From NCBI GenBank assembly GCA_026707815.1, contig JAPOWB010000008.1, positions 62,230 through 126,229 of the forward strand: 64,000 bases of DNA, read 5' to 3'. Origin of the DNA: Candidatus Saccharimonadota bacterium. GTDB lineage: Bacteria; Patescibacteriota; Saccharimonadia; Saccharimonadales; VXPC01. The translations under genes and the position numbers were made by a program. Below are positions 273-58,935 of the stretch, in pieces; within the stretch, counting starts at the first letter, position 1, and every line of letters begins with the position of its first letter. A model generated the notes under the pieces. The model did no database searches. It was not told where the DNA came from and worked only from the letters and a program-made list of their open reading frames with translations.

Positions 273-480
273 ATCTTTCTTTGGTTAAGGGCATTATACC
301 AATAAGTGGGTATATTAGTCAATTATACTTTACCAATGAATAAGATTAAAAATCTATTATTGGAATTTTGATTCGATCCAAGCATTTGATAGCCCAGCTT
401 CTTTTCTATATCTCGCTCCGCCTGTAGATTTATAGAGTTATAGAGTTATAGATTAGTATGATGCTTATTCAGTGCATATG

Positions 481-507
481 AAACCCCCCCCCTAATGAAA
501 GGGGGTT
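481..507 (-). terminator. Rho-independent terminator downstream of pilin cassette 1
   Basis: Read on the minus strand there is a CCCCC/GGGGG(G4) hairpin followed by a T-run, immediately 3' of the pilin stop at 525. A homologous module follows pilin cassette 4 at 6600-6624. Confidence 0.55.
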
Positions 508-524
508 ATTAGGGTTAGAAGGGG

Positions 525-1210
525 TTAGTTGATATCGTCAACACAATAAGTAACTGAATCTCCTTCAAGCATATAAAAGATGGCTAGACTACTGCTGATA
601 CCAGATGGAGCAATGTCAGTAGCTTTAACCTCCTTAGAAGTTGCTGCTCTTTGGGGAGATGCTGTGCTACTACATTTCGAACCAGTTATGATAAGCAGTT
701 GGTCTGCTTCATTAAAGCCGGTCCAAGTACCTGCTGTAGTAACAGAGGTTTCACCGCCATGGGGGCTTGTAGTTTCGCAATTACTTTGGGAAGTGCTAGC
801 CACTGTATTCACAGTACCACTGCCAACTACTCGACCTTTGCAACCATTTCCACCAACAAATTTAACTATTCCATTTGTTTTAAAATTAGTTCCCTGCATG
901 TATAGAATTTGAGCTGGTTTTATCGAGTGTTGAGCATTTAGTGAAGAAGTGAGCTTTTCTAATCCAGCCGCTCCCACATGATTAACTTCATTAGGATTAT
1001 ATTGAATGGTAGTAGGTACTCGACCTCCAGCATTAGCTAAAGATTGGTCGTACTGAGTTCTAATAAAAGCTCTATCATTATTTCTGCCACTATTCCTCTG
1101 ATTTCTATTCAATGCCGGAACAGCTACAAAAACCACCGCCAAGATCAAGCCAGCAATGGCGAGGACAATCATGACCTCGACGATGGTGAAGCCTGATATC
1201 TTGGGGTTAT
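525..1210 (-). CDS. Type IV pilin-like protein, cassette 1. It has no start codon in its present orientation; its 5' end is the left inverted repeat
   Basis: It encodes ...HNPKIS|GFTIVEVMIVLAIAGLILAVVF..., i.e. a class-III prepilin cleavage site (G|F, Glu at +5) and a hydrophobic helix. The C-terminus carries cysteines and the motif LEGDxxxYCxD. The upstream in-frame sequence runs to a TAA with no ATG/GTG/TTG; the ORF track starts at an internal Met (1172). Confidence 0.8.
1132..1210. repeat. Left arm of a 79-bp perfect inverted repeat, within the pilin N-terminal coding sequence
   Basis: The reverse complement of 1132-1210 is identical to 1953-2031 (ATAACCCCAAGATATCAGGCTTCACCATCGTCGAGGTCATGATTGTCCTCGCCATTGCTGGCTTGATCTTGGCGGTGGT). 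An imperfect extension to about 1088 has 5 mismatches in 44. Confidence 0.9.
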
Positions 1211-1952
1211 GGGAGGCAAGATATTCTAGAATATCTAAATTATTAATGTATAATGCTAAAAATTGAATTTAACCCTTGGCAGTGAATATATTATTAATTC
1301 AATAAATTCTTATTGATTTTAGTATTATATAAATGCATCTAGCATCTGTAGAGATGAAAGTGTAGCAATACATTGAATAAAATTTATATGCAGATATAGA
1401 AAGTATCTGAAAGGCAAAATGTATAAGTCATTATTCAAGCTATCTAAAAACAATTTTGACGATGTTCAAGCTTAATGCAATCAAGAGTATTTAGTCTGAC
1501 TGCAATAATTCACACGACGACCCCACCCCAGCATCTTATAGCAGAATAATACATTTTGATTATGGCGAGGGAGGGTAAATATTTAAAATGGACAATTAAG
1601 ATTAAAGCTATGAAATATTTAAATATCAAACCCCTTAATTGAATAATTAGATTGCTAGATTAATACAATTTTATCTCTATGTAGTCTAAGTTTTACAGGT
1701 TTCAAATTTTACTTTATAGAGATAGATCCTTTATATAGTTAGTACTGGCTTTATCATGGGAAGTTTCATCTATTGTATTTTTAACTAATATACACCTATT
1801 GACTTATAAGAGCATTTAGATAGACTGGAGGATAACGATATTAAAAAATAAATATAAGAGAAATAGGGGAGTTTATATTATGAATATATCTAAGATATTA
1901 AGGAGTATTTCTTCTTTCATTAATAAGAAGAATACTAATAAAACCAAACTTG
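1211..1952. promoter_or_regulatory. Putative invertible promoter/RBS/leader segment between the inverted repeats
   Basis: This 742-bp AT-rich segment has no ORF of 60 aa or more. It contains the RBS GGGGAG and the ATG (1880) plus 26 leader codons that feed the plus-strand pilin. Inversion would fuse the same leader in frame to cassette 1. Confidence 0.5.
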
Positions 1953-2509
1953 ATAACCCCAAGATATCAGGCTTCACCATCGTCGAGGTCATGATTGTCC
2001 TCGCCATTGCTGGCTTGATCTTGGCGGTGGTCTTTATTGCTGTTCCGGCATTGCAAAGAAATCAGAGGAATAGTGCGAGACGGAATGATGTGGCATATGT
2101 TAAGGCTCAACTTAATCAGTTGGTTGCCAATCGGGGCAACAGAATTCCAGCAGCTAACGAAAATACCCAAATTGCTGGGATTTTGCAAGATGATGAATTG
2201 AATTATTTGGGATCTGCAGATAACACAGGTCGTCCAACTGTTACTCCAAAAGCTCATGGTGATGCTATAGCTATTGGTGATGCTCAAACAATACTGTGGT
2301 ATGCTGCTGAGCCTACTGGGACTACAGCGCTGAATGTCGGAACAGACATTTTGGTTTTAGTGCGTGGAGAAAGTTGTGGGGGTAACAATATTTTGAGCAA
2401 TGCAAATACTGCTAACATTGCGGGTTTAGTTGAAGCCAACAGAAATATAGCCATCATCTATACATTGGAAGAAGATACCAATGTTTACTGCGAAGATACC
2501 ACTCTCTAG
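1880..2509 (+). CDS. Type IV pilin-like protein, cassette 2; the currently expressed orientation, with a 31-aa leader
   Basis: MNISKILRSISSFINKKNTNKTKLDNPKIS|GFTIVEVMIVLAIAGLILAVVFIAVPALQRNQRNS. It has an RBS upstream and a C-terminal ...VYCEDTTL. Confidence 0.85.
   Translation: MNISKILRSISSFINKKNTNKTKLDNPKISGFTIVEVMIVLAIAGLILAVVFIAVPALQRNQRNSARRNDVAYVKAQLNQLVANRGNRIPAANENTQIAGILQDDELNYLGSADNTGRPTVTPKAHGDAIAIGDAQTILWYAAEPTGTTALNVGTDILVLVRGESCGGNNILSNANTANIAGLVEANRNIAIIYTLEEDTNVYCEDTTL
1953..2031. repeat. Right arm of the 79-bp perfect inverted repeat
   Basis: Identical to the reverse complement of 1132-1210; it encodes NPKISGFTIVEVMIVLAIAGLILAVV. Confidence 0.9.
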
Positions 2510-2533: not shown

Positions 2534-3253
2534 TTGACTGCTATGAAAAAAATAAATTCAAAAGGCTTCACCATCGTCGAGGTCATGATTGTCCTCGCCA
2601 TCGCTGGCTTGATCTTGGCGGTGGTTTTTGTAGCTGTGCCTGCACTGCAAAGGAATCAGAGAAATAGTGCGAGACGGAATGATGTGGCTTATCTGAAGAC
2701 TGCCTTTACTACAACTGTTAGTAATTTGGGCAACCAGATTCCCTCTGCTTCGCAGTTTGGAAGTGCTTTAAAATCTGATGAAATGAATTATATCAGTAGT
2801 ATTACCACCAATCTTGTAAGCACAGTTGCTTTACCGAGTGCGGCTGCAATAAACGCTCAGAATATATGTGAAGCGGCTGGATTGTTTTACAATGCCCATG
2901 CACCTCCCAATGCTAATAAATGCAGCAGTGCTGATGGTGGTAATGCATTTGCCCAAGCTTCAGCTACTCAAGTTTGCGCTGGTCTGAATGGCAATTTAGC
3001 TGGAACAAACTGCTCGAATATAGAGGTGCTTTATTATATGCCGTCTACAACTGCTTCAGTACAAAGAACACTGGCAGATACTGGTAATTCAGCAATGATT
3101 GTCACAAAAGCCCAGTGCGGTGGATTAGTTCACTCATTAACTATAGATACAGATACTGGATCTAGTAATGTGAATCTTCCCGCCTATGCTCAACAATCAG
3201 CTATATTCTTTAGATTAGAGGGAGATGATAACGTTTATTGCGAGAACATCTAA
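2534..3253 (+). CDS. Type IV pilin-like protein, cassette 3; it has its own short leader and ATG
   Basis: MTAMKKINSK|GFTIVEVMIVLAIAGLILAVVFVAVPALQRNQRNSARRNDVAYL. The N-terminal 120 nt are about 90% identical to cassette 2, and the C-terminal motif is EGDDNVYCENI. Confidence 0.85.
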   Translation: MTAMKKINSKGFTIVEVMIVLAIAGLILAVVFVAVPALQRNQRNSARRNDVAYLKTAFTTTVSNLGNQIPSASQFGSALKSDEMNYISSITTNLVSTVALPSAAAINAQNICEAAGLFYNAHAPPNANKCSSADGGNAFAQASATQVCAGLNGNLAGTNCSNIEVLYYMPSTTASVQRTLADTGNSAMIVTKAQCGGLVHSLTIDTDTGSSNVNLPAYAQQSAIFFRLEGDDNVYCENI

Positions 3254-3286
3254 TCTCAATCAGCTGCATAGCTCCCATTGATTTAT

Positions 3287-4711
3287 TTAGATTAAAAGAA
3301 AATACTTCAAGGGTATGAATAAACAGTTATTGTCTATTTGCAGGGGCGTATTGGAAAAAGTGATTGCCCAGTTGCAATCAGTATTCTGTAAAGTATATTC
3401 CATTTGTGAGCCACCTTTCTGCCCTAATCCAAATTCGACAGCCAATTTATGACCATTATTAACCTGTAGAATAAAATCTGTCTGTCTGTCTTTGCCATAA
3501 GTTAAATTACCTTCATAAATAGATATGAAGTGCTTGTAAAAATGTAGCCCGGCAATATCTTCCAGCAACAATCCTTGGCGCATGCTCTTAGTCCGCTCAC
3601 TGGCAATACCATGGTAAAAATTTCTAATAACTGGAGACATAAATAAATACTTAGCTGGATTACGATTATTCACGACTGTGTTCCCTTGAGAAGATATCTT
3701 GATTAATAGTTCTGTTTGATTTAAGGCATCAAGGAAACTGAATATTTGATTGCGACTGCAAGCCAAAATTCGGCTTAGCTTTTCAACGCTGATAATATCA
3801 TTGCTATCTGCTAGGATCGACATCAAGTTATTGATGGCTGTCAAGGAACTAGCTTCAAATTGTTTAATCTTTCTTAAATCGGTATTGATAACTTTATCAA
3901 GCATAGCTTTAATATTATGATTCATACGAACAATATTATTTTGACTATAATTAAGAGGTAAAGTCCCGCTTTCTAAATAAGTTGTCAAATGATTCAATGA
4001 ATATTTAATCCAAGCTGTCTGCATCGTTGAATCTAGCTTTTTCAACCGATTATAAGAATCTTTTGGATTTTGGGCATAATAAATGGCTTGAAATATTTTT
4101 TGTCCTAAATCAGCATCAATAGGCTGGTTATGATAGATGTTTTGGAATTCAACGAAGCTTAAAGGATATAATTTCTCTATGTAAGCTCTTCGACCGGCAA
4201 TATCGGCATCCATTTGCAGATGAACAGCTGATGAGCCTGTGCAGAAGAAAAATATATGAGAGGTATTATCATAAAAAGTCTTCAAAGTTCTTGCCCATTT
4301 GGGATCAATTTGGACTTCATCTATGAATATGAAAGTTGGAATTTTTAGAGCTTCCAAATCTTCACCTAAAATTTTTTCATAGGCCTTTAAAACTTCATAC
4401 AGATTAGAATTTAAATTATTTACCACTTCTTCCAAAGAAAAGTGCAGGAGATTAATTTTGGCTTGGCTATTAGCTAACTTTAAATAAATCTGAGCCATTA
4501 AAGTGCTTTTTCCTACACCCCTCAAACCGGGCATAACCAACCATTTAACTGAATTGCTGACAGATTTCAAAAATTGGTTAATATGTTGTTCAACTGTGAC
4601 AACAGCTTTTCTTTCGGGCAGAGGTTTATTATTGAAGTCCACTGTTCGCAGAGATAGTAAATCATAAGCTCGATTTAGTCGCCTCTGTAAATAATCTATA
4701 ATATCTATCAT
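3287..4711 (-). CDS. AAA_14/DUF4143-family ATPase (P-loop ATPase with a predicted nuclease-like C-terminal domain)
   Basis: It has a Walker A (PGLRGVGKSTL) and a Walker B (FIFIDEVQ). The stretch TGSSAVHLQMDADIAGRRAYIEKLYPLSFVEF matches the AAA_14 consensus. It is one of five paralogs in the window. Confidence 0.7.
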   Translation of the reverse strand: MIDIIDYLQRRLNRAYDLLSLRTVDFNNKPLPERKAVVTVEQHINQFLKSVSNSVKWLVMPGLRGVGKSTLMAQIYLKLANSQAKINLLHFSLEEVVNNLNSNLYEVLKAYEKILGEDLEALKIPTFIFIDEVQIDPKWARTLKTFYDNTSHIFFFCTGSSAVHLQMDADIAGRRAYIEKLYPLSFVEFQNIYHNQPIDADLGQKIFQAIYYAQNPKDSYNRLKKLDSTMQTAWIKYSLNHLTTYLESGTLPLNYSQNNIVRMNHNIKAMLDKVINTDLRKIKQFEASSLTAINNLMSILADSNDIISVEKLSRILACSRNQIFSFLDALNQTELLIKISSQGNTVVNNRNPAKYLFMSPVIRNFYHGIASERTKSMRQGLLLEDIAGLHFYKHFISIYEGNLTYGKDRQTDFILQVNNGHKLAVEFGLGQKGGSQMEYTLQNTDCNWAITFSNTPLQIDNNCLFIPLKYFLLI

Positions 4712-4851
4712 CTTTGTTAATTTGTTAGAATATTTAATAAATCTAATTTCATACTATATTAGCTCATTCAATTTATCTAGTCAATCAATCCCTATCCAAT
4801 AGAGGAGTATCTTGTAAAATCTCGAATTTCTCGATTATTAATATCCAAATG

Positions 4852-4873
4852 CTAGGATTTAATTTAATCCTAG
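4852..4873. promoter_or_regulatory. Inverted repeat CTAGGATT-N6-AATCCTAG in the divergent intergenic region
   Basis: It has perfect 8-bp arms and sits between the divergently transcribed ATPase (minus) and dprA-like (plus) genes, so it is a candidate operator. Confidence 0.3.
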
Positions 4874-4904
4874 ACATATATTTTTATGTTAATATTTTAA
4901 TAGG

Positions 4905-5807
4905 ATGAATCATAAGCAGAGTTTTGCCATAAATCCACTAGAAGAGGCAATTGCTTACGAAGCTTATATTGCTCTTGAGAAAGATCGCTCTGAACAAAAA
5001 TTAGAACAGCAATTTCAGCTACATAATACTGATAACGAGTTAATTCAAATCCAGGCTAATCAACCTACCATCAGTCAGTTTCTAGATGAGCTACATATTA
5101 GTAGTGATTATCATAAACTAAAACAAGTGATTGCTAAAGAATTAAAGAAAGGAACTGGCTTCTCCATTTGCACCTTTATGAGTTATCACTATCCTCAAAA
5201 GTTGAGAGACAATAAATATCCTTTAAAGTTATTCTACTATCGGGGAGATATAAATCTATTAGATACAAGATGTGTTTCTATTGTTGGCAGCAGACAAGCT
5301 AGCGAAGCTGGTTTGAAAGACACTCAGCAAATCGCTCAATATTTAATAGAAAAGAACTATACGATTATTTCGGGTCTAGCCCAAGGCATAGATACAGTTG
5401 CTTTAACAACTGCTATAAAAACTCATGGGAGAATTATTGGTGTTATTGGCACTCCAATAGATCAATATTACCCCAAAGATAATAAAGATTTACAGGATGA
5501 AATTGGCAGACGACATTTACTCTTAAGCCATGTGCCTTTTTATAAGTATGATAAAGAGCCATTTTCGGCGAGGAGAAATTACTTTCCTCAGAGGAATATT
5601 ATTATGGCTAGCATTAGCCAAGCTACTATTATAGTCGAAGCATCAAATACTAGCGGGACTCTCCATCAAGCTAAAGCAGCCTTAGATCAAGGTCGGCAAT
5701 TATTTATTTTGGATAGATGTTTTAAAACCGCTACTTGGCCAGCTAGATTTGAAAGACAAGGAGCTATTAAAATAAATAATATTGATGACATCAAGGAAAA
5801 TTTCTGA
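4905..5807 (+). CDS. dprA: DprA/Smf-like DNA-processing (Rossmann-fold) protein
   Basis: It has the IVGSRQASEAG...ISGLAQGIDTVALTTAI...IGVIGTPID motifs typical of the DprA/Smf family. Confidence 0.6.
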   Translation: MNHKQSFAINPLEEAIAYEAYIALEKDRSEQKLEQQFQLHNTDNELIQIQANQPTISQFLDELHISSDYHKLKQVIAKELKKGTGFSICTFMSYHYPQKLRDNKYPLKLFYYRGDINLLDTRCVSIVGSRQASEAGLKDTQQIAQYLIEKNYTIISGLAQGIDTVALTTAIKTHGRIIGVIGTPIDQYYPKDNKDLQDEIGRRHLLLSHVPFYKYDKEPFSARRNYFPQRNIIMASISQATIIVEASNTSGTLHQAKAALDQGRQLFILDRCFKTATWPARFERQGAIKINNIDDIKENF

Positions 5808-5981: not shown

Positions 5982-6581
5982 GACCATAACCCCAAGATAT
6001 CAGGTTTCACCATTGTCGAGGTCATGATTGTCCTCGCTATTGCTGGGTTAATCTTGGCGGTGGTCTTTATTGCAGTGCCTGCACTAAACAGAAATCAGCG
6101 TAATAGTGCTAGAACAGCAGATAGAAACAATATCAGACAAGCTGTCCTGCAAGTTCAAGCTAATACTGGTGGACGAACAGCCGCCGACCACACCGTAGTT
6201 GGTGGGGCGTTAACAGGACTAGAAGTTGCTCACGTTGGAGATGGGAATGGTTCATATAACAACTCAATCGAAGTAGCTAATGTGAAAGCCTTCACAGTGG
6301 CAGCTCCGCAAATTGATGATGGTGAAATAGAATATATCAGGAGAACCTCTACTGTTACCACGCATACCACCACTGGTACTCCCGGTGATTTCCATTATAA
6401 TGGCTTAGTAATCATTGGGGATGCAAGATGTGCCAAAGATATAATTTCATCTGATGGAAAATTTCCCACTGCTGGTGCTAATATTGGTGGTGGTATTCAG
6501 GGAGCTGCCAATAGAGGCGATATAGTTGTTCTCTATAGGATAGAAGGTGATAATAATATTTATTGTGACGATAATGTCTAA
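5982..6581 (+). CDS. Type IV pilin-like protein, cassette 4. It is a complete pilin body with no start codon, so it is a putative silent cassette
   Basis: The frame opens right after a TAA: DHNPKIS|GFTIVEVMIVLAIAGLILAVVFIAVPALNRNQRNS. Homology to the other cassettes begins exactly at ATAACCCC (5986). There is no ATG/GTG/TTG or RBS upstream. The C-terminus is ...EGDNNIYCDDNV. Confidence 0.75.
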   Translation, partial: DHNPKISGFTIVEVMIVLAIAGLILAVVFIAVPALNRNQRNSARTADRNNIRQAVLQVQANTGGRTAADHTVVGGALTGLEVAHVGDGNGSYNNSIEVANVKAFTVAAPQIDDGEIEYIRRTSTVTTHTTTGTPGDFHYNGLVIIGDARCAKDIISSDGKFPTAGANIGGGIQGAANRGDIVVLYRIEGDNNIYCDDNV

Positions 6582-6599
6582 CCCCCCTCTAGCCCTAAT

Positions 6600-6624
6600 A
6601 ACCCCCTTTAATTAGGGGGTTTTG
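6600..6624 (+). terminator. Rho-independent terminator after cassette 4
   Basis: AACCCCCTTTAATTAGGGGGTTTTG. The 3' flank TAACCCC..CTCTA.CCCTAATAACCCCCTTT.ATTAGGGGG is shared with cassette 1. Confidence 0.6.
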
Positions 6625-6931
6625 TTTAAAAGAAATTATCATGTACCAAAATAAAATAGAAGAAATACACATCAAAAACATTATAGGAAACGTGCAAGTT
6701 GATCCAATTTCACAAGTAATTCTAACCAACCAATTCAACTTAGGCAGAAAGCTGGATCAATTGAGTAAAATGCTTGAACAAAAACTCAGCTAAACTCATT
6801 TTTGGAACTATTAAAATTATCTGTTTTATGGTATAATTATAGATATGAAAGAAGTTTATTTGTTGGTTTGCAAATTTTTAATGAAGTATTATAATTTAAT
6901 AAAGAGTACAATGGCGGGTGGGTGATTTAAA

Positions 6932-7435
6932 ATGCAAAAAGAACTTAAATCTCCCTATCAAGCTATGGATATAGCGGATTGGTTTATCGATCGAGCCAAT
7001 AAGGATTTGACAAATAACAATCCTAAATCAACCGAAAAAGAATATGCTGAATATATTAGCCATTTAAAATTGCAAAAATTACTTTATTTTACTCAAGCAG
7101 CTCACTTAGCTCTTTATGAAAGAGCATTGTTTAAAGACAAAATAGAGGCGTGGGATTATGGTCCTGTTATCCCCAGCGTATATCAACACTTCAAATCTCA
7201 GAGAAGTCGATTCATTAGAAATCCAAAAAGCCTCCAATATAAGAAAATTGATAAAGATGCCCAAGAGTTTTTAGAACAAATATGGCAAATATTTGGCAAA
7301 TTTTCAGCAAGTAAATTAGTGAATTTAACCCACAGTCATGAGCCTTGGAAATCTGCTTGTAAAAAAACAAACAGGATAATCACTCAGGATGCCTTAAAAG
7401 CTTACTACAAGAACATTTTTAGTTTCAAAGACTAA
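6932..7435 (+). CDS. Panacea-domain (DUF4065, SocA-like) protein, a putative antitoxin
   Basis: ADWFIDRA...KLQKLLYFTQAAHLALYERALFKDKIEAWDYGPVIPSVY matches the Panacea consensus (KLqKLLY...AW.yGPV.p.vY). Confidence 0.65.
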   Translation: MQKELKSPYQAMDIADWFIDRANKDLTNNNPKSTEKEYAEYISHLKLQKLLYFTQAAHLALYERALFKDKIEAWDYGPVIPSVYQHFKSQRSRFIRNPKSLQYKKIDKDAQEFLEQIWQIFGKFSASKLVNLTHSHEPWKSACKKTNRIITQDALKAYYKNIFSFKD

Positions 7436-8975: not shown

Positions 8976-10196
8976 ATGAATAGATATTCATTAATCTCTC
9001 GCTTAGCTCAGCAAGTAGTTCAAAATCACTTAAAAACAATGCCCGTAGCAGTCATTACAGGAGCTAGACAGACTGGCAAAAGTACTCTTGCCAAAGATTT
9101 AATTAGTCCCTCTCGGCAGTTTTATAGCTTAGATGATTTTGAGATTCTGAGCAATTTCTTGCAATACCCTAGGCAATTATTAAGTAGTGACCTACCAATT
9201 ACTATTGATGAAATACAATTAGCCCCCAGTTTATTAAAAGAGATTAAATTGGCGGTAGATCATCATCGCATCGAAGGGCAATTTTTACTGACTGGCTCAG
9301 CTAATCTGCTGCTAATGAAGGATATATCCGAATCATTGGCTGGTCGAGCCAGCTACATAACTTTATGGCCAACAACTCGGCGGGAGCGACTACAGGTAAA
9401 TCCCCCCAGTCTTTGGCAGGAATTATTGAGCTTAGCGGATAGAGATTGGCTGGCATTTTTTAAAAGCCAAAAATTATATCGGGATGATTGGCGAAAATTA
9501 GTTTTAAGAGGTGGTTTCCCAACCCCAGCTTGGCAGCTCAAAACAAACCCGCAATGTTCTATTTGGTTTGATAGCTATATTAAGACCTACTTGGAGCGTG
9601 ATCTTCGGAATATATCATCGATATCATCTTTACCTGATTTTCGTCGCATAATGCAAATTTTATGTCTGAGAATCGGACAATTATTAAATCAAGCAGAAAT
9701 ATCTAGAATAACTGGCATACCTCAACCAACAATTTGGAGATATATTAACTTATTGGAAATTTCCTATATGTTAATTCGCTTACCCGCTTATACATCCAAT
9801 AAGGGGAAAAGTCTATTAAAAACTCCTAAAATATATTGGGCGGATACGGGTTTAGGCTTGCATATTTCTAAGGGTCAAATCAATGGCTTTCATTTAGAAA
9901 ATTTAATCTTAACTGATTTCATGAGCTGGAATGATGCTTCAACTTTGAATGCAGAGATATTCCATTGGCGAACTACATCAGGTCAAGAAGTGGACTTTGT
10001 TATTGAATATAACGGTAATTTATTGCCAATGGAAATCAAAGCTTCAAATTTACCAACAGCTAAAGATATTAAAAATATTCATGTATTCCAAGAGATGTAT
10101 CCTCAGTCTAGATGCGGAATACTACTACACAGTGGTCAAACTTTAGAGTGGCTTAGTCCAAAAGTTTTAGCTTTGCCATGGTGGTATTTAATTTAA
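8976..10196 (+). CDS. AAA_14/DUF4143-family ATPase (shorter paralog type)
   Basis: It has ITGARQTGKSTL (Walker A) and TIDEIQLAPSLLKEIK...LLTGSANLL...SLAGRASYITLWPTTRRE. Confidence 0.7.
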   Translation: MNRYSLISRLAQQVVQNHLKTMPVAVITGARQTGKSTLAKDLISPSRQFYSLDDFEILSNFLQYPRQLLSSDLPITIDEIQLAPSLLKEIKLAVDHHRIEGQFLLTGSANLLLMKDISESLAGRASYITLWPTTRRERLQVNPPSLWQELLSLADRDWLAFFKSQKLYRDDWRKLVLRGGFPTPAWQLKTNPQCSIWFDSYIKTYLERDLRNISSISSLPDFRRIMQILCLRIGQLLNQAEISRITGIPQPTIWRYINLLEISYMLIRLPAYTSNKGKSLLKTPKIYWADTGLGLHISKGQINGFHLENLILTDFMSWNDASTLNAEIFHWRTTSGQEVDFVIEYNGNLLPMEIKASNLPTAKDIKNIHVFQEMYPQSRCGILLHSGQTLEWLSPKVLALPWWYLI

Positions 10197-10404
10197 ATGA
10201 AGAGATTATCATATGTATAGTTAAGTTTCCAAAACTGGCAGTTAGATTACAAAAAATTCAGAATATATCTAAAGAATCTTATCTCTTTTATTGAGCGAAG
10301 CATTGCCAAGGTTTATCCTCACCTTGATTTGAAACTAAACAAATAAAATGTATATTAGGAAGTGAAGTAATGTTTAGAAAAATAAAACTATAAGTGGAAC
10401 TAAA

Positions 10405-10626
10405 TTGAGGCAGAATCTTGCTGATATTACTCAAGTTGTCGCTAATGACACAGATGTAATTATCACTTATAGAGGTGTTCAAAAACAGGTAATTATGAGT
10501 CTAGACAGATATGAAGATTTGCTAGCTTCATCGAATCCCAAGTATTTAGCAGATATTAAACAGGCTCGTCTTCAAACTAAATCTGGGCAATATTTAAAAT
10601 TTGATGAAGTCTTCGATAATTTGTAG
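10405..10626 (+). CDS. Phd/YefM-family antitoxin
   Basis: It is a 73-aa protein with LADITQVVANDTDVIITYRGVQKQVIMSLDRYEDL (Phd/YefM fold), and it lies immediately upstream of a RelE-like ORF. Confidence 0.6.
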   Translation: MRQNLADITQVVANDTDVIITYRGVQKQVIMSLDRYEDLLASSNPKYLADIKQARLQTKSGQYLKFDEVFDNL

Positions 10627-10890
10627 ATGGCAAAATATCAAGTCATTTTGATCAAGAATACTATTAAAAATTTGGAAAAATTGGATAGAATCATTCTTCA
10701 GCGTATCAAACAAAGATTAGAATATTTCAGAAAGAACAAACCTCTTAGCCAAGCGATTCAACTAACCAAACCAGCAGATGCCCAGTATAGTTGGCGGCTC
10801 GGAGATTATAGAATCTTATTTGATTACAGGAAATCAGATCAAACAATTATTATTTTAAAAATCCAGCACAGAAAAGAAATCTATCGCTAA
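10627..10890 (+). CDS. RelE/ParE-family toxin
   Basis: It is an 87-aa protein with ...WRLGDYRILFDYRKSDQTIIILKIQHRKEIYR (RelE/ParE C-terminal signature). Its start abuts the antitoxin stop. Confidence 0.65.
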   Translation: MAKYQVILIKNTIKNLEKLDRIILQRIKQRLEYFRKNKPLSQAIQLTKPADAQYSWRLGDYRILFDYRKSDQTIIILKIQHRKEIYR

Positions 10891-11106
10891 AATTGATGCA
10901 AATGTGAACTGAATGGGTTTTACACTAGCTCCCATAAATCAAAGCTGCTTATTCATCTAAATGCACCTCACTCCATCATCGTAAGAAAATTTGTTGAATT
11001 AAAATTAGTGGTACACTGAGTAGATATTAACTTACTGTTGTATTCTAAAACACCAAAAGATTATTTCGTTGTTGAATCTTAATACAACAGCATATATAAT
11101 AAAGAT

Positions 11107-12555
11107 ATGGACAGCGAACTATATATTAGACAATATTTAAACCAACAACTAGAACATGGACATCAAGCCCTGAGCCTCAAGCTGATTGACTCGCAAAAAT
11201 CAAGACTACTAATCAGAAAACTCCAACGATATATTCAGCAATTTCTTGGTGGCGAAAAACAGGCTGATCGATGGGTTATTATCCCCGGTCTAAGGGGGGT
11301 GGGTAAAACCACCATATTAGCTCAAACTTACATTTGGCTGGAAGCAACGCATAATATTGAAGATATAAATTTAATCTATATTTCCTTGGATGAAATCATC
11401 CCGCAACTTAATTCTAATCTAAATCAGGTTATGCAAGTTTACGCTCAAGTATTGGGACACGATTGGATTAATTGTAAAAAACCCACCTTCGTCTTTATTG
11501 ATGAAGTTCAGCTTGATATCAATTGGGCGCAAACTTTGAAAGTGATATATGATAAAAACCCTAATCTATTTTTTATTTGCAGCGGCTCATCAGCTACATA
11601 TTTACAACTGAACGCTGATGTTGCGGGACGAAGAGCTATCATTGAAAGGCTTTATCCTTTGGCTTTTACTGAATATCAGTTATTAGCCTATGACAAAGAT
11701 AGCTCCCCTCATTTTAAAGATGAACTGATGACTATTCTTTATTATTCAGATTCAGCTGACATAGTTTTTAAAAAGCTAAAACAAAAACGACTGCTACTTG
11801 ATCGAGCTTGGGCAAAGTATGACAGTAATAATCTTGATCACTACTTAACAATGGGAACTATGCCTTTTGCTCTGCATCAAACTAATAGAGAGAAAACTTA
11901 CATAGCCTTAAGAGGTATGATTGATCAGGTAATTAATAATGATATACAGGCTGTTAAGAACTTTAATCAAGGTAGCCTAGCTGTCATCAGAAGATTGATG
12001 TTTTTATTAGCTGATTCCGGTGATGTTGTTAGCTTAGAAACATTGGGCAAGGTATTGGGGGTAGATAAAAAGCAAATTTGGGAAATGCTAGATACCTTAC
12101 TTAAAACTGAATTATTAATAAAAGTTAATGCTTATGGCAATCATTATACTGCAACCCGCAAACCAGCTCGCTATCATTTTATGAGTCCAGCTATCCGATT
12201 GACTTTAGCTAGCAGTATCAGTAATCGCAACCTGACGATAGCTAGAAGAGGACGATTATTGGAAGATATAGTCAGTTTGTATTATTATCAAAACTTTGCT
12301 ATTAATCATAAAGCTGATTTAACTTATCCTTACAGTGTTAATAACCAGAAAAACTGTGATTTCATTTTAAAGATACTCAATAGCCATAATATAGCTTTAG
12401 AATTTAGTCTTGGTAAAAAGGACATTAAACAATTGGTTGCCACCATGAAGACAATCGATTGTCGTTATGGGTTGATGTTTTCAGATTCTAATCTGAAACT
12501 GATCAAAGATCAGAATATTATTAAGATTCCCATACATTACTTCTTTTTGTCTTAG
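11107..12555 (+). CDS. AAA_14/DUF4143-family ATPase paralog
   Basis: It has IIPGLRGVGKTTILAQTY and FVFIDEVQLDINWAQTLK...CSGSSATYLQLNADVAGRRAIIERLYPLAFTEY. Confidence 0.7.
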   Translation: MDSELYIRQYLNQQLEHGHQALSLKLIDSQKSRLLIRKLQRYIQQFLGGEKQADRWVIIPGLRGVGKTTILAQTYIWLEATHNIEDINLIYISLDEIIPQLNSNLNQVMQVYAQVLGHDWINCKKPTFVFIDEVQLDINWAQTLKVIYDKNPNLFFICSGSSATYLQLNADVAGRRAIIERLYPLAFTEYQLLAYDKDSSPHFKDELMTILYYSDSADIVFKKLKQKRLLLDRAWAKYDSNNLDHYLTMGTMPFALHQTNREKTYIALRGMIDQVINNDIQAVKNFNQGSLAVIRRLMFLLADSGDVVSLETLGKVLGVDKKQIWEMLDTLLKTELLIKVNAYGNHYTATRKPARYHFMSPAIRLTLASSISNRNLTIARRGRLLEDIVSLYYYQNFAINHKADLTYPYSVNNQKNCDFILKILNSHNIALEFSLGKKDIKQLVATMKTIDCRYGLMFSDSNLKLIKDQNIIKIPIHYFFLS

Positions 12556-12559
12556 GATT

Positions 12560-12738
12560 TCATAACCCCAAGATATCCGGCTTCACCATTGTCAAGATCA
12601 TGATTGTTTTGGTGGTTGCTGGCTTGATCCTAGCGGTAGTCTTTATTGCTGTTACGGCTCTGCAGAGGAATCAGAGGAATGGTGCTAGGCAGAATGATGT
12701 GGCATATCTAAAAGCTCAATGTGACACTGTCTTTTAAT
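12560..12738 (+). pseudogene. Truncated type IV pilin cassette 5 (N-terminal ~57 codons only, no start codon, E+5 replaced by K)
   Basis: HNPKIS|GFTIVKIMIVLVVAGLILAVVFIAVTALQRNQRNGARQNDVAYLKAQCDTVF*. Homology starts at the same ATAACCCC boundary (12563). It lies 10 bp after the ATPase stop. Confidence 0.7.
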
Positions 12739-12873
12739 GCCATAAATTCGGAAGATCTTAATTAGTCTAATCAGGCTGCTGCTACCCCCCCCCCCTTTTT
12801 TTTAAAAAAAAATGGGAGGTTTTGATTTAAGAAAAAGAACTTAGAATCCCTAAGAGATATATCATATATACAC

Positions 12874-13944
12874 CTAGTGCCTGAACTTAAACAATAAGTG
12901 TCTCAATAAAGTATTTTTCTCTAAACGAGTTAAAATCCAAAAGAATAAATAATGAAGTTTTTTAATACTTAAAGTATAAGTTGGTAAATAATCATAACGT
13001 GTTCGGGTAAATTTTGATTTAAAGATGGTCAGGCCATAGAAATTATGTTTACTGGTAGCTTTGGGTGGAGCTACGCCCCATAGATTATAAACAGATAGAC
13101 CCTGTTTGAGAGCATCTGAGATAGCTTGCTTTTGCAATAAATAGGAAGCCCCCACAGTTTGTCCCCTAGTTGAAGATCCGCCATATAAATAGCTTCTCTC
13201 CCCCTCTAGATCAATCATCACTGCTGAAGCCAAAGCTTCGGAGTTGTCCTCCTCATGCACCAAATAAAGATGCAACTTATTGGCTTTAAAAAACTCTAAG
13301 GCTTGGATTTTAATAAAGCTTAAGGGCTCTTGAACAAATTTTTGGCGATGTTGAGTTAATTGATGAATCTTCAAAAAAGATTCTATACCACTTAAACTAT
13401 TATCAACAGTTACTGATAGATTATTATCTTCGGCTTGTCTAATTTCATATCTTAGTTTGGCGTATCTTTTACCTCTAAATAAAGATTCCTCACTCAAATC
13501 GGTTAAATCCAACTTTAAAGTGCTAGGTGTAGTTAGATTAATTAGGCTTAATCTCAATTTAAACTTAGTCATCAAATCCACATTGTTGGCAGTATTCATT
13601 AAGCAACTGGCCAAATTAATAAAAATAGCTGAAGTCTCTGAAGCTAAAGACTTTAATCTTTCGATTAATGATCTGAAGAGAGCTTCGGGTGGTGAATCGT
13701 CCGAGAAATTGACGAAGACTTTCAAGAAGCGTCCCCGTTTGGCGGGAGTATTAATAACTAAAATTAAAGCCTTTGGTTTTTGATTTTCATAAATCCCCAG
13801 CCTAAAAATCTCAAAGCCAGCCTTTTTGAAGGCTTGACCTTGCTCCCAAGCAGTTAATAAACTGCGTTTGTGAATATCTAAGCTTTTATAAGCTGATTGC
13901 CACTGCTGACTTGTAAAATTAGTTTTCCAAACATATTCAGGCAT
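12874..13944 (-). CDS. FemAB-like / GNAT-fold acyltransferase (tentative)
   Basis: It is 356 aa. Length and composition fit a two-lobed FemAB/BioF2-like fold; the assignment comes from overall resemblance only. Confidence 0.3.
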   Translation of the reverse strand: MPEYVWKTNFTSQQWQSAYKSLDIHKRSLLTAWEQGQAFKKAGFEIFRLGIYENQKPKALILVINTPAKRGRFLKVFVNFSDDSPPEALFRSLIERLKSLASETSAIFINLASCLMNTANNVDLMTKFKLRLSLINLTTPSTLKLDLTDLSEESLFRGKRYAKLRYEIRQAEDNNLSVTVDNSLSGIESFLKIHQLTQHRQKFVQEPLSFIKIQALEFFKANKLHLYLVHEEDNSEALASAVMIDLEGERSYLYGGSSTRGQTVGASYLLQKQAISDALKQGLSVYNLWGVAPPKATSKHNFYGLTIFKSKFTRTRYDYLPTYTLSIKKLHYLFFWILTRLEKNTLLRHLLFKFRH

Positions 13945-14073
13945 ATTCTGAAATTATCTGTCAAACCCTCATCTTTATGCAAAACAATCTTAAAATTATC
14001 TAATGTAGTAAATTCAGCTAATTAGAATATAGTAGCTTCAAAATTCTGCTAACATACTAGTTACTAAATACAG

Positions 14074-14535
14074 TTGAAAATGAAATCTGGTACGTTGCAA
14101 ACTAAGTTCAAAGAATATTCCTATGCTCGCAAACTAGATTTAATTACCTCCAACGAACGAGATTTTTTTCATACCCTCAGAAGAGCTGTTAATATTGAGC
14201 ATTACTACATTTTCGTTCAAATTCATTTGTCTGCTTTATTTAAGCATCAAGTTAGGGGGCAAGACTGGCAAAAAGCTTTATCTAAGATTGATCGAAAATC
14301 TGTTGATTATGTAATCTGCACTTTTAAGAGACTTAATCCAGTTTGTGGGATTGAATTAGATGATCTAAGTCATAATCAGCCTGATAGAATCAAAAGAGAC
14401 CAATTTGTCAATGGTCTTTTTCAACGAGCTGGCTTGCCTCTGCTTCGTATAAAGCAATCTGACAAAAATAATTTGGAGTCTTTAAGGGAAAAATTAGGAC
14501 AGATTGAAATTCCACAAAACTTCAGTTTTTATTAA
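14074..14535 (+). CDS. DUF2726 (NERD-like) domain protein
   Basis: SNERDFFHTLRRAV...HYYIFVQIHLSALF...SVDYVICTFKRLNPVCGIELDD matches the DUF2726 pattern. Confidence 0.55.
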   Translation: MKMKSGTLQTKFKEYSYARKLDLITSNERDFFHTLRRAVNIEHYYIFVQIHLSALFKHQVRGQDWQKALSKIDRKSVDYVICTFKRLNPVCGIELDDLSHNQPDRIKRDQFVNGLFQRAGLPLLRIKQSDKNNLESLREKLGQIEIPQNFSFY

Positions 14536-14972
14536 CCTAGCAACCAATAAGTGAGACTAGTCCAAGCTAAACCAACCATAAAACCACCAAAAACTTGAGA
14601 CGGTGAATGACCTAAGGCTAGAGAATAAGCTTTTTTCTGATCACCCAGTTTTAAAATTTCAGCAATTTGTCGCAAAGTTTTAGTGTTTTCACCGGTAGCC
14701 CTTCTAACTCCCATCGAATCATAAACTACCACTCCCCAGACGGTTAATGCCAAGCCAAAAATAGTTGAATCAAAGCCTTGATCCAATCCGACCAGCAAGG
14801 CAACTGAGGTTACTAAAGATACATGAGAAGAAGGCATGCCCCCCGAAGTCAGTAAATCATACCAATTTAAGCCGTCTTGTCTCAAAGAAAGAATGATTTT
14901 AATCAGCTGGGCAGTAATCCAACCACCTGTTGCCACGACTATATAAATGTAATCAGATAAGAATTCAATCAT
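14532..14972 (-). CDS. Divergent PAP2 / YuiD-like membrane protein
   Basis: GGMPSSHVSLVTSVALLVG...VVYDSMGVRRATG matches the acid phosphatase/vanadium haloperoxidase-related (DUF212) family. Confidence 0.55.
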   Translation of the reverse strand: MIEFLSDYIYIVVATGGWITAQLIKIILSLRQDGLNWYDLLTSGGMPSSHVSLVTSVALLVGLDQGFDSTIFGLALTVWGVVVYDSMGVRRATGENTKTLRQIAEILKLGDQKKAYSLALGHSPSQVFGGFMVGLAWTSLTYWLLG

Positions 14973-17521
14973 GATTTCTGTTTAGAAGCTTGAGATTTCT
15001 TAGATTTTGGTTTAGTCAACTCAGTCCGGGATTCCTCTTCTTCGTTGGCTAAAACAATAGCTGAAACAACTTGATCATCAGCATCAACCTTCATTAAGCG
15101 TACTCCCTGAGTGGCTCGTCGCAAACATCTAATATTCTTAGTTGCCACTCTAATGGTTTTACCTTTTTCTGAAATAGCAACAATTTCAGATTTTGAGGAT
15201 GTTAGACTATGAACGAAAACTAAATTACCAATTTTTTCATTAATAACCAAAGATTTTACTCCATAACCGCCTCGTCGATGAGTGGTAAATTCCTCAATCT
15301 TAGTCCGCTTACCATAACCATTCTGACTTAAAAAGAGTAAGGTCATATCCGGTTCAACTAAATCCATACCGACGACATAATCATCTTGTCTGAGTCTGAT
15401 GCCTCTCACTCCCCTAGCAGTTCGACCCATAGTTCGAACATCTTTTTCTGAGAAGCGATTGGATTGACCTTGAGCGGTTGAAATAATAACTTCATGATCT
15501 CCAGAACTTAGGCGAACATATTTCAGTTCATCTCCTGCCTGTAAATTAATAGTGATTAAACCGTTTTGTCTTAAGTTCTGATATTGGCTTAAAGCCGTCT
15601 TTTTGACAACTCCTTTTTTAGTACACATAAACAGATTGCCTTTAATATCTTCCGCTTTAAAAGAACCTTTATCTATTTTAAACATGGCACTAATAGTTTC
15701 ATCACTTCTCAAAGCTAAAAGATTAGCAATGTTGACTCCCTTAGCATCAATTTTAGCCACAGGAATTTCATGACATCTTAAACTAAAAACTCGACCCGTA
15801 TTAGTGAAAAATAATAAAGTGTCATGAGTATTAGCTTGAATTAAGTCTTGGACTAAATCCTCATCCCGAGTAACAATGCCTCTTCTACCCTTACCACCCC
15901 GTCGTTGTTGCTTATAATCACTGGCTTGGGTTCGCTTAATGTAATTAATAATAGTCAAAGTCACTATAACTTCTTCGTTGGGGATGAGGTCTTCATCACT
16001 GAATTTGTCTAAATCATGAGGAATGATCTGACTCCTGCGTTGATCTTGGAATTTATCTTTTAATTCCAATAATTCTTCTCGAACAACTTTTAAAATTAGT
16101 TTGTCTGAAGCTAGGAGTTTTTCTAATTTGGTAATTAATTTACGTAAATCAGCTAATTCGTCAATAATTTTCTGTCTCTCCAAACCAGCTAGACTACGCA
16201 ATTGCATAGCTAAAATAGCCGAAGCTTGAATATCTGTTAATTTGAATTTTTTAATCAATTGAGCTTTAGCTTCATCTGAAGTTTCAGCCACTCTAATGAG
16301 TTTAATGATGGCGTCAATATGATCTAGGGCAAGGTTTAAGCCTTCAAGAATATGAGCTCTATTTTGAGCTTTATGTAATTCATATTCCGTCCGCCTTCTG
16401 ACAACTGTTTGGCGATGCTTAATATGTTCTTTTAAGATATCCAGTAAGCCTAAAACTCTAGGTTGAATACCATCGATTAAGGCCAGCATATTAAAATGAA
16501 AGGCTGTCTGAAGTGAAGTATATTTATAAAGCTGATTTAAAATCTTCTTAGGGTAAGCATCTTTTTTCAAATCAATGACAATTCTAATTTTGCCTCGAGC
16601 GGATTCATCACGAATATCGGAAATGGCGGTGATTTTTTTATTCCTAACTAAATCAGCAATTCTCTCAATCATGTTAGACATATTGATAGCGTAAGGAATC
16701 TCGGTGATTATAATCCGACTAGTTTTTCTATCTTTTTCCTCTATTTCAGCTTTAGCTCGAATGATAACGCTCCCTCGCCCAGTAGCATAGGCTTTATACA
16801 TATCCTCACCAGCATAGACTAAGCCACCCGTTGGAAAATCTGGGCCCTTAATAAACTTTAAAGCGTCTTCAATTTTCGATTCAGGCTCATCAATTAGAGC
16901 AACTGTCGCATCAATGACTTCAGAAAGATTATGGGGCGGAATGCTAGTCGCCATCCCAACGGCAATCCCAATTTGACCATTGAGCAATAAATTAGGCAGT
17001 TTGGCCGGCAAAACCTCGGGTTCAACTTCTGTGCCATCATAATTGGGTCGAAAATTAACTGTCTCTTTGTCTAAATCATCAAGCAAAACCTCAGCATGTT
17101 TACTAAGCTTAGCTTCCGTATAACGATCAGCGGCAGGAGGATCGCCATCCATAGTCCCAAAATTACCTTGACCAATAATTAGGATATAGCGAGTTGACCA
17201 ATCAACTGCTAATCGAGCCATAGCATCATAAATAGCCAGATTGCCATGAGGATGATACTTGCCCATAACATCGCCAATAATTCGGGCGCTTTTTACGGTC
17301 TTGCTGCCTGATTTGATGCCGTTTTTATTCATGGAATATAAAATCCGTCGATGAACGGGCTTTAAACCATCCCGAACATCCGGCAAAGCTCTGGCGATGA
17401 TGACACTCATGGAATAACGCAGGAAGTTATCTTCCATAGTCTGGGTGATGGACGAAGCTTTGATTTGAGAATTTTGATCTTCTAAATTAGAGTCTGGTTG
17501 ACTGGTTGAATCTTTGTCCAT
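14969..17521 (-). CDS. gyrA: DNA gyrase subunit A
   Basis: It has [33 protein letters not shown] and the C-terminal beta-pinwheel repeats; it is 850 aa. Confidence 0.95.
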
Positions 17522-25399: not shown

Positions 25400-25400
25400 A

Positions 25401-25742
25401 AAGCTAGATAGCCGATAAGCCGGGTTTTGTCGTGATCAATCATTTATCTAGGACAATGATTACTCATTACCTCTAGCGGTTCACGTAGTTTATTTAGCGA
25501 GCAACTATTTATAAACTACCCCCTTGCTACAGATAGGGTTTACCTGCTTTTATTTGTCGCCAAATAAAATTGTAAGCTCTTACCTCACTCGTTTCACCCT
25601 TGCTTAAATTCAAATTAAGCGGTACACGTTTCTGTGGCACTTTCCCTAAGGTCGCCCTCGGTTGCCGTTAGCAACTATCCTGCTCTATGTAGCCCGGACT
25701 TTCCTCCAGTTTAAAACTGGCGATTGACTAGCTATCTAGCTT
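25401..25742 (-). ncRNA. rnpB: RNase P RNA (bacterial type A)
   Basis: The minus strand reads AAGCUAGAUAGC...GGAGGAAAGUCCGGGCUACAUAGAGCAGGAUAG...GGGAAAGUGCCACAGAAA...ACAAAACCCGGCUUAUCGGCUAUCUAGCUU. The P4 strands and the ACAGAAA motif are conserved, and the 5' and 3' ends pair to form P1. Confidence 0.85.
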
Positions 25743-25786: not shown

Positions 25787-26401
25787 CTACAAATTTTGAT
25801 TCAAAATTTGATTGACTATAGCATCAGCTTTTTGGTTGTATTTGCGAGGAATAAAAGTAATGCTATAGGTTTGCAATTGAGCTAAATAATCAACAACCTC
25901 TTGATAAATCAAACTTAAATCTGGATTGCGAACCTTGTATTGCCCTTGAATCTGCTTGACAATCAACTGACTATCCATAAAAATTTGCAAAGATTCAATT
26001 TGTTTATTCAAAGCTAATTTAACGCCTTGGAGTAAGCCTTGATATTCAGCTTGATTATTAGTGCAATATTTATAAAAAGTTCCTCCAGAATCTAAAACTT
26101 GATCATTTTTATCCAATAAAATGAAACCACAAGCTCCTGGACCTGGATTACCTCTTGAGCCACCATCACAAAATAATTTTGCGGAATCAATGGAGAAATC
26201 CTGATTAAAATATGCCTCAATAATGGGGATTAATAATCTGCCGCCAGTTTGAGTTTCAAGCTCAACTTGATGGTCTTTAAAGTAAATTTTCAAATCCTTA
26301 ATCTCAACTGATGATAGTTTTTGACTGAGATAATTTATGAAATCCCAAGCAGTCTGCCGGTTAGTAAATTCTTTTTTAAATTTATAGCTACCCAAAGACA
26401 T
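25787..26401 (-). CDS. rnhA: Ribonuclease HI with an N-terminal extension
   Basis: CDGGSRGNPGPGACGFILLD...AEYQGLLQGVKLAL (RNase H active-site region). Confidence 0.7.
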   Translation of the reverse strand: MSLGSYKFKKEFTNRQTAWDFINYLSQKLSSVEIKDLKIYFKDHQVELETQTGGRLLIPIIEAYFNQDFSIDSAKLFCDGGSRGNPGPGACGFILLDKNDQVLDSGGTFYKYCTNNQAEYQGLLQGVKLALNKQIESLQIFMDSQLIVKQIQGQYKVRNPDLSLIYQEVVDYLAQLQTYSITFIPRKYNQKADAIVNQILNQNL

Positions 26402-54166: not shown

Positions 54167-54169
54167 ATT

Positions 54170-55234: not shown

Positions 55235-55299
55235 AGTCTTTGAGTATTACCCCACCACATTTCTTGCATAAAATTAATTATAAAAAATTGTTTGAATTT

Positions 55300-57141: not shown

Positions 57142-57657
57142 AAATTTCTTGGATAATATTTATGTTTGTTTTGAATAAATTAATACCCTAATTATACTGA
57201 ATTACCCCTAAATTAGCTGTTGTGTTTTGAGGGAATTATGTAGCAGAAGGAATTTACAGAGGGTAATTTATCGTATTTACAATTACATTACATCGGATTT
57301 TAAGGATAAAGTATGACTAAAAAGAAAGAGCCTTTAAAACTAGTTAGCCAAGTTGATGGTAAGCCTTTTATTGAGATTGATTTAGAAAGCAATGTAGCTG
57401 TCTTAAAAGCTCCTCAAATTGAGGCTACTACTTTATATGGGGTTGAGAGGATTTAGAGCTTTTTATAAGCAAGTTGCCAAGTGAGTTAACTGCCATCAAA
57501 AAGATTTTAGATGTCTATAAAGCCGAATGGCTGAAAAAAGCCTTATAAAACAAATTAGATTTTGCAACATCAAGCCTATCCCCAATATTTTTAAGATAAT
57601 TCAGTAGCCAATCAAAAAGCTCCTTTAATAAGGAGCTTTATTGATGCCTATCTAATC

Positions 57658-58800: not shown

Positions 58801-58935
58801 AATTATTATTCTTTCAAAGATTGTTATTTATTGCTTTTATAATATCACATGATGGGAAACTGGCTTTAGCCCCATCTGCTACATAATTCCCTGTTTTGAG
58901 AATATATACCCAGAGTTGAGATTTTGTGAAATAAA

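Follow-up and report, generated by a model that had tools for sequence, protein, structure and literature searches.

In this study, we analysed a stretch of 64,000 nucleotides (hereafter the window) from a Candidatus Saccharimonadota bacterium (assembly GCA_026707815.1, contig JAPOWB010000008.1), near the start of which two type IV pilin reading frames are arranged head to head around a single leader-carrying segment, the expression module. The source is a metagenome-assembled genome (MAG) from a sponge metagenome, named Candidatus Saccharibacteria by NCBI. The plus-strand gene (1880..2509, +) encodes the expressed prepilin of 209 aa, which was taken from the list of open reading frames (ORFs), matches Pfam N_methyl at 9.7e-07 and carries the body designated E. 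Its product reads MNISKILRSISSFINKKNTNKTKLDNPKISG/FTIVEV..., where the slash marks the cleavage site, with a 31-residue leader ending in LDNPKISG, G(-1), F(+1) and E(+5), and the NCBI MAG lists an identical protein under MCY4088942.1. The minus-strand counterpart, cassette L (525..1210, -), is a leaderless full-length pilin of 222 codons from G(-1) to the stop at 525, and it keeps the C-terminal cysteines. Its frame reads ...KG, a stop codon and IQFLALYINNLDILEYLASHNPKISGFTIVEV..., running back through ASHNPKISG to a TAA, with no ATG, GTG or TTG from that stop to the G/F cleavage site, in agreement with an earlier reading made from the letters alone (the sequence-only reading), which had described the minus-strand pilin as intact and startless. 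A homologue of cassette L, protein P0002 on contig L003, is a complete prepilin with a different leader, sharing 79% amino acid identity with a query composed of the leader plus L and 89.7% nucleotide identity over the L body.

The two frames are joined by a long inverted repeat. A repeat search of the window returned 1054-1210 and 1953-2109 as arms of 157 nt at 88% identity lying 742 nt apart, and a direct count gave 0 mismatches in 79 bp (1132-1210 versus 1953-2031), 5 in 123 bp and 19 in 157 bp, reproducing the perfect 79 bp and the 123 bp with five mismatches reported in the sequence-only reading. A 26-mer taken from the arm was matched five times in the window, against 0 expected from shuffles of the window. 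The right arm (1953..2031, +; 79/79 identity to 1132-1210 on the other strand) constitutes the 5' box of the expression site, in which ATAACCCCAAGATATCA codes for the end of the leader, NPKIS, followed by G(-1) and the mature N-terminus FTIVEVMIVLAIAGLILAVV. The left arm (1132..1210, -; 79/79 identity to the right arm) is the 5' box of cassette L, and the flank upstream of it is unique sequence (TATTCTAGAATATCTTGCCTCC) without a start codon. In comparisons between lineages, the 63 nt coding for the 21-residue peptide FTIVEVMIVLAIAGLILAVVF show 10-18 synonymous differences, versus 0-1 between the arms here, so the identity of the arms is not explained by protein constraint alone.

The unique part between the arms (1211..1952, +), defined from the sequence and a promoter scan, consists of an AT-rich upstream region, a promoter-like element (a sigma-70-like candidate, TTGACT-16-TAGACT, at 1799-1826), a ribosome-binding site (GGGGAG, 1866-1871), the ATG at 1880 and unique leader codons (1880-1952), which are the first 24 of the leader. 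As had been claimed from the letters, the only ribosome-binding site, ATG and leader of the switch sit in this 742-bp spacer and feed the plus-strand pilin. The ORF list holds no frame longer than 44 aa in the spacer, and Rfam at gathering thresholds returned nothing in 1-13 kb and, elsewhere, only RNase P and tRNAs. In four related loci, the last ~200 bp of the module (promoter, 5' untranslated region and leader) are almost invariant, and the upstream half varies by ~10%.

Directly downstream of E lies a second pilin gene, pil2 (2543..3253, +; ORF list and Pfam), which has its own ATG and a short leader, MKKINSKG/FTIVEV, and whose N-terminal 139 nt are 91% identical to those of E. Body E and pil2 form a two-gene cassette, still adjacent, at 98.7% identity, at a silent position in the related contig L004. 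A long-leader prepilin can be made only from the module at 1211-1952, and pil2 keeps its own short leader and start. Outside the window, comparison with related contigs and the source scaffold revealed two additional leaderless cassettes on the minus strand, Q lying 1.2 kb and T 2.7 kb upstream of position 1. Within the window we found a further leaderless full-length cassette, D (5986..6581, +), where the box again follows a unique flank and G(-1) is not preceded by a start codon. A truncated, degenerate relic (12562..12737, +) consists of the box and 52 codons with a stop at 12735-12737; it begins 7 nt past the stop of an AAA_14/DUF4143 gene (11107-12555) and is conserved in L008 (GCA_026708245.1) at 17435. 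The library thus comprises four intact leaderless cassettes (L, D, Q, T) and one truncated relic, of which L, D and the relic lie within the window. Pfam PF07963 (N_methyl) scored above cutoff for the expressed pilin, pil2, L and D, and the class III signal of type IV prepilins (...ISG/FTIVEV, E at +5) is present, with K in place of E at +5 in the relic. All full cassettes retain the reading frame, G(-1), E5 and the C-terminal cysteine pair. In the cassettes at 525-1210 and 5986-6581, which are leaderless, gene callers place the start at an internal ATG (MIVLAIAG...), and PGAP starts leaderless cassettes 9 codons earlier at ATA (ISGFTIVEV...; MCY4088936/39/41/46); these starts are likely annotation artefacts, and the frames so annotated are probably not independent genes.

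Each of these cassettes is headed by a copy of one box. Four copies of the 15-mer ATAACCCCAAGATAT, each with pilin N-terminal codons behind it, are present in the window, where 0.2 would be expected; these are the two arms, one at 5986(+) heading D and one at 12562(+) heading the relic, with two more upstream heading Q and T. The silent copies all begin to share homology at one and the same base (Y-ATAACCCC), each behind a unique flank. Most cassettes also end in a common 3' box made up of the stop codon, then ...CTAACCCTAATAACCCCCTTTAATTAGGGGGTTTTGT and a terminator hairpin. After cassette L, this element occupies 478..527 (-), where 3'-end alignment and a terminator scan identified the stop codon and the conserved segment with its hairpin (TAACCCCTTCTAACCCTAATAACCCCCTTTCATTAGGGGG...), and after cassette D it was found by 3'-end alignment at 6579..6626 (+; TAACCCCCCTCTAGCCCTAATAACCCCCTTTAATTAGGGGGTTTTGT). 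Just downstream of the truncated relic, at 12785-12825, there is a homopolymer block of C11 T8 A9 followed by GGGAGG, which looks like a slippage-expanded form of the 3' box hairpin AACCCCCTTTAATTAGGGGG.

Related loci were obtained by exact-protein look-ups, as DNA scans with box patterns gave 0 hits, and reassortment of flanks and bodies is directly visible among them. The leader MNISKILRSISSFINKKNTNKT(K/E)LDNP(K/Q)ISG is joined to three bodies, namely the one in our contig and those of P0006, which is absent from our contig, and P0007, which is a diverged E-type body. The most informative contig is L004, a 5.9-kb contig assembled at k=141 from another sample and 90-99% identical to ours over aligned segments. 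In L004 the module is joined to another body, G; our E plus pil2 (98.7% identical) stands leaderless behind the flank that precedes Q in our contig, and our body D stands behind flank fT, which precedes T in ours. Two in-silico inversions of our sequence, the first between the Q-site and the E-site and the second between the T-site and the L-site (3.2 kb and ~2.4 kb), made L004 colinear with it, with alignment on one strand over 1-944, 1447-2535 and 2955-5784. After the two inversions only two body exchanges were left, G for Q and D for L, with breakpoints at the 5' and 3' boxes, the 3' breakpoint including the box following cassette L; both replacements could be gene conversions. In L008, the outer flanks are 99% identical to ours and the content between them differs, with the 474-aa AAA gene (98% identical) on the other side of the module and in opposite orientation. 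Reciprocal inversions of different sizes between 5' regions, the behaviour by which a sap-type system is recognised, were thus found between strains, not within one. The leader-moving inversion put forward in the sequence-only reading therefore holds in part: among related contigs the leader module appears to have been re-joined in frame to startless bodies, and the order in L004 differs from ours, so the arrangement is not fixed in all related genomes, but no assembly compared showed the 742-bp segment flipped between E and L.

It might be argued that such orders result from metagenome assembly, with chimeric joins formed through the repeated box and no real reassortment. The boxes are indeed repeats of 80-130 bp, and several of the related contigs are short, with ends that fall in or near a box or 3' box, as in L005 and L006, whose first bases lie inside the left arm. 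However, our arrangement recurs on a 160,638-bp ENA scaffold that carries the expressed pilin together with its neighbouring AAA gene, and a separate 160,455-bp NCBI contig has the same proteins; L007 and L008, assembled independently, agree in gene order, and the boxes of L004 differ within the first 60 nt, so at its k of 141 unique k-mers span each junction. Furthermore, random chimeras would not yield an order explained by two clean inversions. We therefore regard an assembly artefact as extremely improbable.

The arms of the module appear to be maintained by exchange within each genome. Within a genome they are identical at 79/79 positions in our contig, at 99.2% of 131 nt in L008 and at 84/86 in L004, and between genomes they show 4-10 differences in 86 positions; in L008 the box has changed in a coordinated way, with ATAACCCCCAAATATCA in both arms. 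Near-perfect arm identity has thus arisen independently in three genomes. When body E of our contig is compared with that of L004, the first ~115 nt differ and the remainder is 98.7% identical, and the C/T variants in GGYTTCACCATYGTC are linked neither to the flank nor to the body. Since box variants track neither neighbour, the 5' ends are best read as mosaics of repeated exchange with variable end points. An attempt to map the exact crossovers between L004 and our contig failed since the boxes have been re-homogenised within each genome.

Taken together, we consider it fairly likely that this is a recombinational pilin-variation locus, with one movable expression module, a library of leaderless cassettes, nested inversions of RecA type and body replacement at the 3' box. 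Reciprocal recombination between the box of the expression site and any oppositely oriented box would invert the DNA between them, so that the leader would be joined in frame to a different pilin body and the one used before would lose it. As the locus now stands, a single inversion would reach L, Q or T, and D would take two (nested inversions), as D is oriented like E and would become reachable once the module points the other way. The 3' box with its terminator hairpin would allow replacement of a whole body by double crossover or gene conversion, including with DNA of other strains or elements. The two-state switch suggested by the sequence-only reading accordingly gives way to a multi-cassette locus with nested inversions, for which at least four intact leaderless cassettes, the relic, the two-gene cassette and the body replacement speak. 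We infer that such exchanges may proceed at a useful rate within populations, by the enzymes considered below, and that they would change the major pilin, with consequences for host attachment or for susceptibility to phages.

Several observations weigh against this proposal. Box patterns gave 0 matches in GTDB species genomes, JGI metagenomes and IMG/VR, and thus no further examples. The predicted flip product, in which this leader precedes body L, was not found in a collection of 5.8 billion proteins, where the best matches to the query were the leaderless ORF itself and the homologue with the other leader, and the cluster members of all cassettes included no leader-bearing variant. Our contig and the near-identical assemblies L007 and L008 share the same module orientation relative to the L-type and E-type bodies, so that the search of related assemblies for the flipped arrangement, as had been suggested along with the switch, gave neither the flip nor a leader-on-L protein. 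In the consensus assemblies (ours, L004, L007 and L008) both orientations were not found in one population. The divergence of L004 from our contig ranges over ~1-10% among segments, so what looks like the operation of a working switch could be a set of rare inversions on an evolutionary time scale.

As for the enzyme, we favour general homologous-recombination machinery of RecA type, acting on 80-130 bp of maintained identity with no dedicated invertase. The same inversions among multiple cassettes could instead be made by a dedicated site-specific recombinase encoded elsewhere, with a core site in the box; candidates are a tyrosine recombinase (Rci, HvsR or Xer1-like), a serine invertase or a Piv-like DEDD enzyme, as in shufflons and the vsa/vpma systems. 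This explanation draws on the exactly shared 5' homology edge of all cassettes (Y-ATAACCCC), which includes 17 nt of non-coding sequence in the silent copies and is kept in L010, at ~70% nucleotide identity, despite many synonymous changes further in; so sharp an edge would also fit a protein-recognised site. Moreover, tyrosine recombinases drive the known systems built in this way around a single expression site (PMC2268961). However, the edge of homology lies elsewhere in L016 (ATAAGTAGATTT...), and the sole dyad in the box, of 8 nt (CGAGGTCA-TGAT-TGTCCTCG), does not exceed shuffles (p ~0.16) and, compared by eye, is not conserved in the L010 and L016 boxes. No recombinase domain (Phage_integrase, Resolvase, DDE or DEDD) was detected by Pfam in 47 of the 51 window ORFs of at least 120 aa or in three genes 18-20 kb upstream, nor was any integrase, resolvase or transposase domain present in the scanned ORFs and the upstream stretch; the precomputed Pfam marks of the related loci contain no recombinase domain, and a short contig from an unrelated assembly, reached by rightward look-up, has none. 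The sequence-only reading had noted that no recombinase ORF lies inside the segment, which is correct and holds for the ~77 kb searched around it. These ~77 kb are about half of the 160-kb contig, and a trans-acting invertase encoded elsewhere in the genome is conceivable, which again counts against the proposal. The sequence that was available contains no recA gene. Because no recombinase was found, the dyad is neither significant nor conserved, and the mosaic box polymorphisms imply variable crossover or conversion tracts, we favour homologous recombination and hold a dedicated site-specific enzyme to be unlikely.

Similar arrangements are found in other Saccharibacteria lineages. In L010, which comes from another study, ATAACCCCCAGCCTGAAATATCTGG heads three cassettes, and in at least one of these no start codon is possible; in L015 and L016 the leaderless copies retain a longer piece of the leader (ISRFNNNKTKDNHKG). 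In L016 (NGUY21-1 scaffold_162, 9301-11215), an expressed pilin and a convergent leaderless pilin share inverted arms of 185 nt (89%) starting 23 nt after the ATG, a Moraxella-like geometry in which both bodies are inside the invertible segment and the promoter is outside. Pilin genes with other leaders (MIKSFKSLLLADRKQKSNQRG and MRCIKKIIKSLSAGKDKNQQG) occur at L017 8945-10357 and L011 7412-8077, on elements that each encode a phage portal protein and a phage-type integrase, L011 encoding a prohead protease as well. Between its first mature codon and the 3' box, the two-gene cassette of L017 shares 95% identity with E'-pil2', the chromosomal cassette of L008. The presence of this cassette behind a different leader in a phage-like element is explained by the 3' box, since the homology runs from the first mature codon to that box, which suggests that phage-like elements carry and exchange pilin cassettes.

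The pilin cassettes are embedded in a defence-island-like region. Comparison with L008 shows that -10476..15792 is a variable island between flanks that are 99% identical in the two strains. In our contig the island contains a NERD/UvrD helicase (DRT-associated-like), SocA/Panacea (6932-7435), PhD/ParE (~10405-10890) and a gene for a retropepsin-like aspartic protease, and in L008 it contains Abi_alpha. Five paralogous AAA_14/DUF4143 ATPases matching the PADLOC candidate defence family PDC-S01 were identified (3287-4711, -; 8976-10196, +; 11107-12555, +; 39539-41071, -; and L001 6948-8393, -), two of which stop 4-7 nt short of a leaderless pilin box, and in the distant lineage L010 homologues likewise lie next to cassettes; those abutting cassettes were considered as recombination factors, and in view of their match to PDC-S01 they are provisionally treated as cargo. 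The gene at 4905-5807(+) encodes a 300-aa protein with a DprA (DNA_processg_A) domain that matches ShosA of the Shosta defence system end to end (PADLOC, 3.6e-75), with no ShosT-like partner adjacent. As a competence DprA loading RecA this gene was rejected, because of the end-to-end ShosA match and its absence from the syntenic L008 locus, and its product is probably not a competence DprA.

This setting bears on the possibility that no ongoing switch exists and that the leaderless copies are reservoir genes or duplication remnants in a hypervariable island, subject to rare homologous recombination and transfer, with the arms kept alike by occasional gene conversion. Such a view finds support in the richness of the island in defence-type genes (PDC-S01-like ATPases, a ShosA-like gene, a NERD helicase, ParE/PhD and SocA), in the very different gene content of strains with 99% identical flanks, in the two-gene cassette that L008 shares at 95% identity with a phage-like element where it has a different leader, and in the lack of any demonstrated within-sample heterogeneity. 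However, cassette D, leaderless in both our contig and L004, has accumulated 23 synonymous and 7 non-synonymous changes, a ratio of non-synonymous to synonymous rates (dN/dS) of 0.09 that indicates purifying selection. Because of this ratio and of the features kept by the full cassettes (frame, E5 and C-terminal cysteines), silent cassettes must be expressed often enough for selection to act, and judged from their sequences the leaderless cassettes are not decaying pseudogenes. The independent origin of near-perfect arms in three genomes and the recurrence of leaderless cassettes with a partial leader in at least three lineages also argue against mere remnants, and the absence of ongoing switching seems to us quite improbable. 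We therefore retain the movable-module locus as the preferred explanation.

The type IV pilus machinery is encoded ~50 kb from the pilin locus, at 52949-61920(-), and includes a PilC-like T2SSF protein, PilT-like and PilB-like T2SSE ATPases and PilM_2; a prepilin peptidase was not identified in the window, and three ORFs of the cluster (57658-58800, 59248-59991 and 59997-60881) have no Pfam match. Elsewhere in the window, a gene at 47553-49406(-) encodes a 617-aa protein of unusual architecture with four helix-turn-helix repeats of MerR type, RNase P RNA of class A lies at 25400-25739(-) with a score of 269 bits and a gene with an RNase H/RVT_3 domain (25787-26401, -) directly downstream, and five tRNA genes are scattered over 26.5-51.3 kb.

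Known systems share parts of this design, and in function the locus comes nearest to Campylobacter sap and Mycoplasma vsa. Dworkin and Blaser (1996-1997) reportedly described in Campylobacter fetus the sap locus, in which a single promoter on an invertible segment lies between opposed S-layer homologues and inversion is RecA-dependent. The promoterless sap homologues have a conserved 5' region of ~600 bp and their own start codons, and nested inversions bring any of them to the promoter; to our knowledge the sap locus encodes no invertase, in keeping with what we propose here. The pilin locus likewise has a single promoter between opposed homologues with a conserved 5' region and further promoterless homologues nearby, but here the cargo is pilin, the start codon and most of the leader move with the promoter, the homology is 80-130 bp and there is an extra 3' box. 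In Neisseria gonorrhoeae, pilE is altered by non-reciprocal gene conversion of mini-cassettes from pilS, with a guanine-quadruplex (G4)-forming initiator and dependence on RecA, and the silent copies stay in place. One expressed pilin, silent copies lacking promoter and 5' end, conserved 5' and 3' elements and possible exchange with exogenous DNA are common to both, whereas here full-length bodies are involved and gene order changes reciprocally instead of remaining stable.

In Moraxella, the promoter and N-terminal part are fixed, and two C-terminal bodies on an invertible segment give two states under a dedicated Piv. Inversion of tfpQ/tfpI by Piv in Moraxella bovis and M. lacunata is mentioned in the literature (PMC4073114). 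A type IV pilin switched by inversion, with the crossover in the conserved N-terminal coding region, is the shared feature; the difference is that here the promoter and leader module lies between the arms and that there are many cassettes. In the shufflon of R64/IncI1, Rci acts on 19-bp sfx sites and swaps C-terminal segments of the minor pilin or adhesin pilV behind a fixed N-terminus. There, too, multiple inversions diversify a type IV pilus protein and change recipient or host specificity, but the shufflon relies on an adjacent Rci recombinase and the N-terminus is fixed, unlike the module described here; the R64 type IV pilus is mentioned in the literature (PMC12102498).

A parallel in the structure of the expression site is offered by the vsa genes of Mycoplasma pulmonis, vpma of M. 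agalactiae and vsp of M. bovis, where one site holds promoter, ribosome-binding site, start and 5' coding region, the silent genes are without those elements, and inversions in the 5' coding region activate a silent gene (PMC2268961). Those systems carry lipoprotein cargo, an adjacent tyrosine recombinase (HvsR, Xer1 or Mbr) and short specific sites, whereas no such gene or site was found here. As interpreted in this study, the locus is the first combination in a pilin of an expression site that carries start and signal, as in vsa, with nested inversion free of an invertase, as in sap.

In the literature on pilin switches in Saccharibacteria and Patescibacteria, our searches turned up no account of how a lineage could change its pilin. 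Saccharibacteria are believed to attach to their bacterial hosts by means of type IV pili (cited in PMC12102498), and TM7 pilins are clade-specific, possibly as a result of host specificity (PMC7739484). It is possible, and we say so tentatively, that a clade of Saccharibacteria, which are episymbionts of the candidate phyla radiation (CPR), has programmed pilin variation, new for the phylum, based on a movable module, cassettes in a defence island, nested inversions without an invertase and exchange with other strains and phage-like elements. Such a locus would account for the fragmentation of pilin loci in MAGs and for the odd annotated start codons of silent cassettes. If true, an organism with a genome of less than 1 Mb could change the specificity of its attachment to the host or escape pilus-specific phages, and a multi-cassette, leader-swapping locus would let episymbionts with reduced genomes vary the fibre that contacts both hosts and phages.

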